From NCBI GenBank assembly GCA_036846005.1, contig DAIUCV010000003.1:1-46224 (forward strand): 46,224 nucleotides of DNA, in the 5' to 3' direction. The notes below the pieces were generated by a model that did not search any database, was not told the DNA's origin, and saw nothing but the letters and a program-made list of their open reading frames with translations. How positions within the stretch are numbered: position 1 is the stretch's first letter; the number at the start of each line of letters is the position of its first letter. Origin of the DNA: Patescibacteria group bacterium. Its GTDB lineage: Bacteria > Patescibacteriota > Microgenomatia > UBA8517. Shown here in pieces: positions 36,294 through 38,603 of the stretch. A program made the translations under genes and the position numbers.

Positions 36294-38603
36294 ATGAGTG
36301 AATCGGAAATGAATTCGCAGGTAGCGTCCTCTCCCGATATGGGTGGAGGGAGTGCGGGTGGAGAAGCTTCAGAAGAAGATAAATTTAAACCCTCATTTTT
36401 ACTTAAAAATACCGACGAGGTCGATAAATTAACTCACACTGGTTTGCAAAATAGGATTCGCGCACTACATAAGGTAGCTATACAAGACCCTGAACATAAA
36501 ATATTTAAAAGACAGGATTGGGTAAATGAATTGGGGGGTTTGAAAAAAAGGATGATCCAACCACAAGAAGGGGAGAAAGTTTATCCACCCGAAGAGGCAA
36601 TGTTGTACTGTGCAAGAATTAATCAAGAGATCGAGGATTACGATAAGAAAACACATACAAATGAAGAAATTACACTTGTGCTTGATGCAAACGTAAGATC
36701 TGCAAAAGAAGTGATTGGAGATTTTAATGAAATTATCAATAATCCAGATTCTGCTAAAGAAGCTAAGATTAAACAGGATCTGGAAATATTGGGGAAGTAC
36801 GCGAAAAACATAGGGGTGTTTGACGGAGTAAAAGATAAGATTGAGGAAATACAAAGAAAATTGCCATTTCTTGAAGCAGCGAAAAAAATTAAGGAATTAG
36901 ACTTGAAACAGGAAAGAACGGAAGCAGAGGGTCTTAAAGGATGGGATCCAAGATTATCGGGAACGGTAGATATCTACAGAACGGCAGTATTTTATAACAT
37001 GATGAAAGTTTGGTCTGATTTAAAGCAACCCATACCTTATGACACAGATAAGATATCTAAATTTGTAGACATATTAAATTATGAAGATCCACCCATTCGG
37101 GAATTGATGAATGTAGCCTCAGCACAACTTCAACTAACCACACAGGATCGTAGTTCTGCATCGAAAGATGTTGCTCAAGTAATTTCACTTTTAAAACAAC
37201 AATTACAAACAGGACAAACCTCATTTACTCCTGAAAATTTTGCTAGAGCGTTGGGAGTTGCTAGCCCGGAACTACAGATGGAATTATATAGGAAAGCTTT
37301 TTATTTTAAATCCGCTGTAGATATATCGGTTGGTCAAGAGCCGAAATTTTTTCCCTCTATTACGGAATCCGAACAAAAACAATGGAGAGCCGAGGCTTGG
37401 TTAGCAACCGTATGTGCTCATAAAAAAAGAGCGTCAAGAGTTGATTATCTTTTCCCTGATGATGAACATTCTGAAATAATGGAATTGTCCAAGGATACGT
37501 TAGAATCTCTTTTTGGAGACGAGAATGGTAAAAATGGGGTTGTGGGAACATTGGAGGTAGCCTCACTTTATACGGTAATTTACCATCAAAACATTCCTTT
37601 ATCAGAATTATTAACCACCCCAGTACAAACTGATAATATGACCCGTGATCAGCAAGGTGTTTACAGAGAACAGCTGGATGAATATAAAAAGTTAAAAGAA
37701 ATTATTAATAACAGTCGAAGACCTGGAACAATCAATAGTGTTTGGGAAGTAAATGATGGACCGAAACATACAGCATTAAGAAAATTAATAAGTCATTGGT
37801 TAAAAGTTAATAGGGGTATGTCAGAAGCTCAAGCGTATGAAGCAGAGATAAACGGAGATAGCTGGAAATATATCTGTAATCTAGTTGAAGATAAAGACGT
37901 TGAAGGAAAACTTCCTCCAAAAACAGACATGAAGCATCTACCCACATGGATGGCAATTCATTTACAGAAAAGGTATGAAAAGAAGATTAGAGGAGATGAC
38001 GAATGGGGGTATTTAGGAGGCTGGGCAGAATATGCCAAAAGGAAAACGGGTAATGAAAATTATCTAGGAGATTATGATAAAAAGCGTGGCGTATTACCTA
38101 ATAGGGTATTACCCAACGCGATGGAGAAAATTACGGTTGGAAATTTTGGGAACCGTGGTATCCCAAGAAACCCGAATCTGACTGGAATCCGTGAGTTTGT
38201 TGATAGAAGTAGAAAAGATGTATATATGTATGATTTATTTTTAGAAAACGGAAGAAGATTGTTAGCTAACCCCAGGGTGGGAAGAAATAGTATTCTTTCA
38301 ATACCATGGTTAGATGTAACAGAAACACCGTTTGCTGACTATTATTCTAACACGATAAATCCGGCAATTTTGGTTTTTAATGTTGCTGTTAAAGGACCCA
38401 GTACAGAGAAAGATATATCTTATCAAGCACTGGGCAATGCATGCAGAAAGTTGGGAATCGAAAGACACTGGAGAGATAGATTAAAGTTAATTAAATACGG
38501 AATTAAACAGAAAAGCACAAAACTTGAACCATATGATGGATCAATTAATTACAAAATATTTGAAGGTGAACTTAAACGTCTAGTTCCCAACTTTTATTAT
38601 TAG
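36294..38603 (+). CDS. 769-aa hypothetical soluble protein, opposite strand, embedded in the T4SS-like cluster
   Basis: A long uninterrupted ORF with no TM, no signal peptide and no P-loop. No motif was recognised. Confidence 0.7.
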   Translation: MSESEMNSQVASSPDMGGGSAGGEASEEDKFKPSFLLKNTDEVDKLTHTGLQNRIRALHKVAIQDPEHKIFKRQDWVNELGGLKKRMIQPQEGEKVYPPEEAMLYCARINQEIEDYDKKTHTNEEITLVLDANVRSAKEVIGDFNEIINNPDSAKEAKIKQDLEILGKYAKNIGVFDGVKDKIEEIQRKLPFLEAAKKIKELDLKQERTEAEGLKGWDPRLSGTVDIYRTAVFYNMMKVWSDLKQPIPYDTDKISKFVDILNYEDPPIRELMNVASAQLQLTTQDRSSASKDVAQVISLLKQQLQTGQTSFTPENFARALGVASPELQMELYRKAFYFKSAVDISVGQEPKFFPSITESEQKQWRAEAWLATVCAHKKRASRVDYLFPDDEHSEIMELSKDTLESLFGDENGKNGVVGTLEVASLYTVIYHQNIPLSELLTTPVQTDNMTRDQQGVYREQLDEYKKLKEIINNSRRPGTINSVWEVNDGPKHTALRKLISHWLKVNRGMSEAQAYEAEINGDSWKYICNLVEDKDVEGKLPPKTDMKHLPTWMAIHLQKRYEKKIRGDDEWGYLGGWAEYAKRKTGNENYLGDYDKKRGVLPNRVLPNAMEKITVGNFGNRGIPRNPNLTGIREFVDRSRKDVYMYDLFLENGRRLLANPRVGRNSILSIPWLDVTETPFADYYSNTINPAILVFNVAVKGPSTEKDISYQALGNACRKLGIERHWRDRLKLIKYGIKQKSTKLEPYDGSINYKIFEGELKRLVPNFYY

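Follow-up and report, generated by a model that had tools for sequence, protein, structure and literature searches.

Why does a chromosomal type IV secretion system (T4SS) locus, in which the credible genes otherwise lie on one strand, hold a single large gene that is read in the opposite direction? This question is raised by a DNA stretch of 46,224 nucleotides (nt), hereafter called the window, which is contig DAIUCV010000003.1 (positions 1 to 46,224, forward strand) of assembly GCA_036846005.1 from a Patescibacteria group bacterium (GTDB lineage Bacteria; Patescibacteriota; Microgenomatia; UBA8517). The gene, designated gene T here, encodes a protein of 769 amino acids (aa) and is located between a PrgI/VirB3-like gene and a VirB6-like gene. 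We found that T is an integral, class-specific component of this oriC-adjacent T4SS locus, which resembles the FATA type of mating pair formation systems (MPF-FATA), and that it is the fastest-evolving and most variable gene of the locus.

Between positions 28637 and 46192, gene T is the sole credible gene on the plus strand, as the initial annotation of the window had noted; the other plus-strand open reading frame (ORF) there (132 aa, 44208-44606) overlaps the pilin genes. The same annotation placed the stop of gene T (TAG, 38601-38603) 3 nt from that of the convergent VirB6-like gene with no terminator between them, and its start in a 119-nt divergent region shared with the PrgI-like operon. 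All of these features were recovered in our analysis (38603 versus 38607 for the stops, 36174 to 36294 for the divergent region). The junction formed no hairpin beyond the stability of shuffled sequence, and a consensus scan revealed no terminator. Gene callers chose an alternative start at 36309 (M6), which gives 764 aa. The start at 36294 is favoured because of the promoter geometry described below and because the NCBI call for gene T of the congeneric genome (747 aa) begins with MSESEM. The dN/dS value over residues 1-280, calculated against the congeneric orthologue, was 0.16 (0.03-0.12 in the neighbouring genes), which indicates that gene T is real and under purifying selection. An identical protein is encoded on six contigs, and the two places that were retrieved came from two different samples. 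RNA signal was detected in the sediment metatranscriptome X24 as two contigs, 98-99% identical to positions 36716-36997, both inside the conserved N2 module of T (Table 1); the neighbouring genes yielded none.

Position and variation of gene T

Gene T was at first regarded as an orphan that is wedged into the cluster as an insertion, and neither description holds. A word-indexed search with the protein returned the identical protein and one relative of 40% identity, nothing else. A full HMMER scan of 1.84 billion representatives recovered a family of 67 clusters at E ≤ 1e-3, 49 of them at E ≤ 1e-10, and every named member is a "hypothetical protein". A sample of 400 genomes from the phylum contained no detectable member of this family.

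In the congener, and likewise in three other genera, a homologue of T occupies the opposite strand between the PrgI-like gene and the VirB6-like gene. Among the 125 genomes of the taxonomic family, the T-family profile was found in 23, though VirB4 was found in 122 at 69-93% identity. Since the profile is rare where VirB4 is nearly universal, the region upstream of VirB4 was retrieved from 20 genomes that were negative or nearly negative for the profile. All 20 carry an ORF of 526-1076 aa without transmembrane segments, on the opposite strand, with its stop adjoining that of the VirB6-like gene. Altogether, a transmembrane-free ORF of 469-1586 aa occupies the position and orientation of T in 34 of 34 analysed family loci, twenty of which had been picked because the T profile found nothing or little there, and the stop-to-stop gap to the VirB6-like gene is 1-33 nt in 30 of the 34. 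In the other families of the class (20 families sampled), a convergent partner of 587-1586 aa was found in 16 of 16 loci, a count that covers loci with a recognisable VirB6-like gene near VirB4. One class-level candidate (L047), a ClpB-like chaperone at a broken cluster, was dropped. Position and orientation were therefore kept in all analysed VirB6-bearing loci of the family and the class, which supports the initial suggestion that T belongs with the apparatus; its occurrence in the syntenic clusters of relatives had been named there as the test. T is an ancestral, class-wide part of the locus layout.

Gene T is strictly single-copy and its position is fixed. Its positional orthologues form two large BLAST components and a number of singletons. 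No Pfam domain was found in 34 of the 35 positional orthologues scanned, and PADLOC gave no hit in six diverse T members including the target. Several loci hold one to six extra variable, transmembrane-free ORFs of small or medium size between the PrgI-like gene and T (L015/L062 2444-5107, L026 2512-4092, L028 2952-5570, L029, L064 2647-5631).

The proteins that congeners hold at this site are unrelated in sequence, and the extra small ORFs between prgI and T in some loci are variable. Both would be expected if the site were a hotspot at which unrelated genes accumulate, defence or selfish genes for instance, and T were unconnected with secretion. We regard this explanation as hardly credible, because the site invariably carries one large soluble gene in the same orientation abutting VirB6, and the promoter type and the N-terminal peptide (e.g., MPDG..PEN) are the same across clusters. 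Moreover, there are no PADLOC hits, and the ORF tables show no integrase or transposase genes at the site.

The constancy of position is accompanied by extreme variation of sequence. Among the family loci, the median pairwise identity of T is 0.22, which is the noise floor of global alignment, compared with 0.60 for the TrsD-like protein, 0.49 for the PrgI-like protein, 0.37 for the VirB6-like protein and 0.30 for the 731-aa wall protein; that of VirB4 is about 75%. Gene T is mosaic and evolves by the exchange of modules and cassettes. The DNA of the window and that of the congener are 80-85% identical across the locus, and the identity falls to 31-47% at about 37150-38770 with sharp borders. 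The border inside T is located at a linker after the N2 module (residue ~286) that has a low predicted local distance difference test score (pLDDT). A contig of a co-occurring relative (DNA run X6, from the same aquifer samples) aligns to 37126 and resumes at 38759. The C-terminal part of the congener's T is nearest to other lineages (P0051, 45%), and that of the window's T is nearest to yet others (~32%). The N2 module is reused with different C-terminal parts in the positional orthologues of other genomes at 40-47% identity, as determined by segment BLAST; P0010 (828 aa) and P0015 (988 aa), both positional orthologues of T, share the N2 module alone.

A second pair of close genomes, G139 and G142, showed the same phenomenon on a larger scale. 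Their flanks are 90-97% identical in DNA, and a tract of ~4 kb cannot be aligned; it takes in almost all of T, from about codon 60 onward, and nearly the whole of VirB6. The protein identities of this pair are 0.97 for TrsD, 0.95 for PrgI, 0.25 for T and 0.40 for VirB6. In both close pairs examined, the exchanged tract thus also includes a part or all of the VirB6 gene. Furthermore, T alleles are common to different genera (0.40-0.45) while congeners differ (0.22-0.25), and in one other genus the greatest variation of T was located in the N-terminal ~165 residues. As T is fixed opposite VirB6 in every locus of the class with a recognised VirB6-like gene and is swapped as a cassette between close relatives, it is a good candidate for the part that sets the specificity of the machine.

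Variable patches were also observed elsewhere in the locus. The 731-aa SLT-type wall protein has a second, shorter hypervariable patch (42069-42212 in the window; 8218-8774 in L030 compared with L059), and the pilin genes hold further ones in genomes that are otherwise 80-97% identical.

Gene T and the VirB6-like protein

The 20 loci of other classes that were analysed (VirB4 43-62% identical) have no convergent gene at VirB6. They contain 13 same-strand polytopic VirB6-like proteins, which differ from those of the class in size. The VirB6-like proteins of the class have 459-624 aa (46 proteins), compared with 622-1151 aa for the 13 proteins of other classes, and the part after the last transmembrane helix is 35-161 residues long (median 85) in the class and 213-604 residues long (median 392) in the other classes. 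These distributions do not overlap (Mann-Whitney p = 5e-8). The VirB6-like protein of the window has likewise a short C-terminal tail only; it gave no Pfam hit, which agrees with a published comment on the difficulty of recognising VirB6 in Microgenomatia, and its gene is the second most variable of the locus. In the loci of the other classes, the 3' end of virB6, which encodes the extension, faces prgI. The extensions are mutually dissimilar in sequence.

Large hydrophilic domains of this kind define a recognised "extended VirB6" class, and a recent review describes them as domains without a known role (PMC12857230). In Ca. Southlakia epibionticum, the SEML1 pair of VirB6-like proteins (998 and 1088 aa) was reported to have C-terminal ARM-like alpha domains, and both proteins were scored essential in transposon sequencing (PMC10633639, Tables S1/S2).

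The loci of other classes also contain same-strand, transmembrane-free proteins of ~380-520 aa between prgI and the extended virB6 (L082 2263-5669, L086 1946-3484, L088 3451-5022, L089 2065-5650), and these might relate functionally to T.

We tentatively favour, with a confidence that stays somewhat short of even, the reading that T is the detached equivalent of the C-terminal extension of an extended VirB6, and that it cooperates with the short VirB6 as a specificity module on the cytoplasmic face of the channel. The order PrgI(-), T(+), VirB6(-) would result if, in an ancestor with an extended virB6 beside prgI, the 3' part of that gene had been inverted once. After such an inversion the two 3' ends would touch and the new 5' end would face prgI, which is the layout observed. 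A leaderless mRNA would be translated into a cytoplasmic protein, which would confer specificity on the machine from the cytoplasmic side of the VirB6/VirB4 channel. The protein may perhaps also enter the channel, or pass through it, in the direction of the host cell, and such an exposure toward the host would explain why T diversifies faster than the extracellular parts.

Several lines of evidence point in this direction. They are the constant position of T in the family and class loci, its phyletic complementarity with the extended VirB6, and a gene geometry that is compatible with an inversion. The hypervariability of T, the cassette swaps, the alleles that cross genera, the constant promoter and N-terminus, and the lack of a VirD4-type protein in the genome are also consistent with it.

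On the other side, a number of observations weigh against a detached extension. BLAST and hidden Markov model searches revealed no sequence similarity of T to any VirB6 C-terminal extension, and the fold of T matched nothing in the PDB (best E 0.13, TM-score 0.12). Profile-profile comparison did not join all positional orthologues into one homologous group, the best result being E 0.0037 with 9% probability. Of the 13 out-of-class polytopic proteins, the family VirB6 profile recognised 4, three more were assigned by Pfam-independent position only, and the remaining ones were identified from position and the number of transmembrane helices alone. The cytoplasmic location of the VirB6 tail is deduced solely from the number of transmembrane helices and the positive-inside rule. 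Co-variation of T and VirB6 was undetectable beyond the two close pairs (partial correlation 0.12), and the VirB6 tails showed no association with the T type; co-evolution over all locus pairs gives no usable signal because the T identities are at the noise floor. Over longer distances, T alleles move without VirB6 alleles. Finally, the expression support consists of two 151-nt contigs from one metatranscriptome.

The exchange of T together with VirB6 sequence bears on a further idea, to which we assign a rather low probability. T and the short VirB6 may form an unrecognised, exchangeable specificity cassette, in which a T protein of novel fold, expressed from a leaderless mRNA, would be threaded through or presented by VirB6 to the host cell, and the allele would set the exploitable host. 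If this is true, the cassette swap between near-identical genomes would be a mechanism of host-range change in episymbionts. If, on the other hand, T is a detached extension, the locus would represent a natural "split" extended VirB6, whose extension can be approached as a soluble protein.

Protein, start region and genome setting

The highest 19-residue Kyte-Doolittle hydropathy of the T protein is 0.86, and we therefore conclude that it has neither a transmembrane segment nor a signal peptide. A motif scan found no Walker A motif, P-loop or HxH-type motif. The protein had zero matches in Pfam, NCBIfam, PHROGs, PADLOC and the PDB sequences. No Pfam domain was present in any of the 46 aligned members of the family, and their profile matched nothing in the PDB. 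The features that the initial annotation had read from the translation, namely no transmembrane segment, signal peptide or Walker A motif, no recognisable family, and an acidic, Gly-rich disordered N-terminus, are thus borne out, the last one by the structural model.

The AlphaFold (AF2) model of T, which was built from the family alignment, is all-alpha with a mean pLDDT of 82.5 and a predicted TM-score (pTM) of 0.65. Behind the disordered N-terminus, residues 41-125 are modelled as helical with lower confidence, and three well-defined helical domains are predicted at residues ~131-286, ~313-480 and ~481-769. The Foldseek comparison that had been recommended for a predicted structure was run; it retrieved generic HEAT/ARM alpha-solenoids only from the PDB, and the search of the viral BFVD also gave nothing significant (best E 0.012, TM-score about 0.1). 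The low-probability structural matches were generic alpha-solenoids and phage internal or tape-measure proteins. On present evidence, the predicted fold of T appears to be without a solved relative. A second AF2 model, of a non-homologous positional orthologue, reached a pLDDT of 54.8 and was too poor for use.

The most conserved core of the family has the consensus ARDAEQIAWN..E..DS...W.MHPQERL.AK..W..G.WA, with A514, E518, E532, D535, H556, R560 and G575 near-invariant. No enzymatic fold or family was matched by this core. A lysozyme-like enzyme was considered for its E/D/H residues and was rejected because there was no fold hit. At the other end of the protein, the consensus (K/R)..xPNFF is found at, or within 3 residues of, the C-terminus in most family members. 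This motif is not common to the non-homologous positional orthologues.

The two termini bear on the question whether T is a dedicated T4SS substrate or effector that is delivered into or onto a host bacterium and has no VirB6 ancestry. Such a protein would be recognised via the constant N-terminal peptide and/or the C-terminal motif, and its diversification would be the outcome of an arms race or of changes of host. The constant acidic N-terminus on a variable body, the conserved extreme C-terminus in the T family and the lack of a transmembrane segment and signal peptide would fit an effector, as would the slightly more basic character of the C-terminal 25 residues relative to background, which is marginal (p = 0.057). 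The same can be said of the mosaic build of T, the faster evolution of T than of the extracellular components, the alleles common across species and the co-occurrence of two T alleles in the same samples. The T4SS of Patescibacteria lacks a relaxase, and it is presumed to be a protein exporter (PMC10633639, PMC12102498). However, the 46 and 34 members scanned revealed no toxin, enzyme or effector domain, and no immunity-like gene is adjacent within the window. Strict single copy and fixed position are unusual for effectors, and the complementarity with the extended VirB6 would be left unexplained. Taken together, we consider a translocated effector rather unlikely.

In this genome, no VirD4-type coupling protein was found with two Pfam models; as the genome is 86% complete, such a protein could have been missed. 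It might be supposed that T, a large cytoplasmic protein with multiple helical domains that is fixed in the locus beside the membrane-channel genes, is a non-exported stand-in for the coupling protein, serving as an ATP-independent docking platform or gate on VirB4, TrsD or VirB6 that recruits substrates. T has neither a P-loop nor a transmembrane anchor, and a platform on the conserved VirB4 and TrsD (75% and 60% identity) is not expected to diverge to noise level, and we regard this role as improbable.

The start region of gene T was more constant than its coding sequence. The -10 element TGTTAAAAT stops 7 nt before the ATG at 36294 in the consensus scan. At least 29 of the 50 positional orthologues have an extended -10 (TGnTAnAAT), mostly with the TG, whose end lies 6-7 nt ahead of the ATG. 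In the window, a -10-like hexamer lies 5-8 nt before the start in 5 of 44 ORFs, and the TG is found in gene T alone. Neither a leader nor a Shine-Dalgarno sequence would fit before the ATG, so the mRNA of gene T is probably leaderless, with a transcription start predicted from these sequence elements, and the start at 36294 is preferred. The positional orthologues begin with M-[A/S/P/T]-[E/D], followed by an acidic Pro/Gly/Ser-rich segment, and the net charge of their first 40 aa is -1.6, compared with +1.2 in background proteins (p = 1.5e-9). The opening MPDG..PEN occurs in T members that are positive and in those that are negative for the profile. A -10-like TAGAAT also ends 7 nt before the start of the lead pilin gene (45575-46192, minus strand; region 46193-46222). 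The lead pilin mRNA may likewise be leaderless, and the ORFs at 1371-1757 and 7988-8518 show a similar pattern.

The divergent region contains a 35-bp inverted-repeat element, which was found in 42 of 67 loci, against 6.5 expected by chance, in a fixed orientation relative to prgI. No family-level locus whose sequence spans the PrgI-T intergenic region lacks it, and a comparison with the congener shows the highest DNA conservation of the whole locus in this 35-bp stretch (97%). The element flanks the -35-like TTGAAA of a weak promoter directed at prgI, and it probably serves the prgI-virB4 operon as an operator or promoter element.

This conserved element, together with the universally tight convergent arrangement and the 3-nt gap without a terminator, might suggest that the role of T is mainly regulatory. 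T would then act against the VirB6-pilin operon through terminator-less convergent transcription, by polymerase collision or antisense RNA, or it would be a transcription factor of the divergent region. We find this very improbable. Antisense control needs no ORF of 600-1500 aa under purifying selection. The element is invariant while T is unrelated between genomes, which makes it unlikely that T binds the element. In addition, the Pfam scans gave no DNA-binding domain for T, and the T proteins are acidic with a median isoelectric point (pI) of 5.65. The role of regulator, which had been among the candidates of the initial annotation, is accordingly disfavoured. The detached-extension reading takes an intermediate place between its other two candidates, a secreted substrate or effector and a substitute for the missing docking component.

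Table 1. Coordinates of gene T, its parts and the adjoining features in the window
Feature	Position	Strand	Details
Gene T	36294-38603	+	769-aa ORF from ATG; soluble all-alpha protein; ORF call and translation
N-terminal disordered segment of T	36294-36413	+	Residues 1-40; acidic, Gly/Ser/Pro-rich, starts M-S-E; pLDDT below 50
Module N2 of T	36684-37151	+	Residues 131-286; helical; pLDDT about 90 or higher; 78% identical to congener
Most conserved core of the T family	37824-38033	+	Residues ~511-580; alignments A2 and A3
C-terminal motif of T	38586-38600	+	P-N-F-Y-Y; C-termini of 68 family members
Cassette replaced relative to the congeneric genome	37150-38770		T residues ~286-769 and last ~50 codons of the VirB6-like gene
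Promoter-like site of T	36258-36286	+	TAGAAA, 17-nt spacer, TG-extended -10 TGTTAAAAT at 36278-36286
35-bp inverted-repeat element	36214-36248		GTGAA-N9-KKCAA-N11-TTTTCAC; about 40 nt upstream of the PrgI-like start
Spacer between the convergent stop codons of gene T and the VirB6-like gene	38604-38606		3 nt
PrgI/VirB3-like gene	35092-36174	-	First of the divergent operon (PrgI, TrsD-like, VirB4, M23 hydrolase, PEGA); Pfam/NCBIfam hits
VirB6-like gene	38607-40208	-	Short polytopic protein, 533 aa; convergent with T; signal peptide, about 7-9 transmembrane helices

The window is one contig of a 0.61-Mb genome in 44 contigs, and the metagenome runs that carry its sequence came from groundwater, sediment and soil. 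An Rfam search of the window was empty. The genes dnaA (25893-27281) and dnaN (27535-28635) are followed by the minus-strand T4SS locus, which consists of genes for a PEGA protein, an 860-aa M23 hydrolase, VirB4, a 231-aa TrsD-like protein and a 360-aa PrgI/VirB3-like protein, then gene T on the plus strand, and then genes for the VirB6-like protein, a 163-aa bitopic protein, a 731-aa protein with a weak SLT_3 match and eight VirB2-like pilin paralogues. The chromosomal T4SS of Patescibacteria is characterised by a VirB4 of the Patescibacteria clade together with TrsD/PrgI-like proteins, wall hydrolases and an array of VirB2-like pilins; it frequently adjoins dnaA/dnaN and has no relaxase (Quinonero-Coronel 2025; Wang 2023). 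The locus corresponds to this MPF-FATA-like T4SS, as it gave VirB4, TrsD, PrgI, M23 and SLT_3 matches, with T4SS_pilin on the neighbouring genes.

The cumulative GC skew has its minimum near 25-26 kb, beside dnaA. It suggests that the origin of replication is probably located there, so that the T4SS operons would run head-on to replication and T would be co-directional with it. About 15 genomes have a VirB4 match in two parts that break at residues ~303-308 within a single open frame of 1175-1363 aa (e.g., G004:C15:8494-12060, G005:C8, G020:C4, G029:C11, G051:C1, G189:C1), which suggests a ~600-aa in-frame, intein-like insertion near the P-loop region. A second and at times a third VirB4 paralogue of 38-44% identity was also observed in some genomes (e.g., G062:C4:8133-9860, G105:C3, G145:C6, G253:C4). 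These paralogues point to an additional, different T4SS or conjugative element.

Known systems compared

A published survey of Patescibacteria T4SS, in which neighbouring genes were grouped with cut-offs of 30% identity and 70% coverage, makes no mention of gene T (PMC12102498). No description of gene T was found in the literature searched. T escaped the family-based surveys because its divergence is beyond 30% clustering and it has no Pfam domain. The T4SS is essential for epibiotic growth in Ca. Southlakia epibionticum, the sole genetically tested species of Patescibacteria. T offers a concrete candidate for a T4SS substrate or host-specificity determinant, and also for the role of the hydrophilic domains of the extended VirB6.

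T and its 46 homologues gave no hit to a conjugative relaxase (MOB) family and have no HxH-type motif. The convergent arrangement with VirB6 resembles prgQ/prgX of the enterococcal plasmid pCF10, which carries an MPF-FATA T4SS, in that, at a monoderm T4SS locus, the convergent units have no terminator between them. In pCF10, however, the overlap is at the 5' ends of short regulatory RNAs, whereas here the 3' ends of two long coding genes face each other.

The cassettes of polymorphic toxins and contact-dependent inhibition systems share with T the sharp intragenic borders at a linker, the constant N-terminus and the occurrence of alleles across lineages. Unlike them, T has no toxin domain in Pfam, PHROGs or PADLOC and no downstream immunity gene; the next gene is VirB6-like, at 3 nt, and the swapped unit of T reaches into it.

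The substrates that are encoded within T4SS loci, and the X-T4SS effectors, which have a constant recognition domain, can be likened to T by analogy. Like T, they are large, lack a signal peptide, lie inside the locus and combine a variable body with constant termini. T shows no homology to them, no recognised translocation domain (Pfam was empty) and no immunity gene.

The VirD4/TcpA-type coupling proteins are comparable to T as partners of the channel on the cytoplasmic side, with the canonical one not found in this genome. T differs in that it lacks the Walker A/B motifs, the N-terminal transmembrane anchor and the Pfam hits by which they are recognised (T4SS-DNA_transf, TraG-D_C), and in that it is hypervariable instead of conserved.

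Compared with the extensions of the extended VirB6 proteins (SEML1_0011, SEML1_0013, TraG of the F plasmid and the VirB6 paralogues of Rickettsiales), T has a gene and a promoter of its own on the opposite strand, and it is longer (600-1500 versus 200-600 aa). Covalent fusion to a VirB6 core, by which these extensions are grouped, is absent from T, and there is no detectable sequence similarity. On the other hand, T and these extensions alike are large, hydrophilic, alpha-helical and highly variable, and both are tied to the VirB6 channel gene; T is present exactly where the VirB6 of the class lacks the extension.

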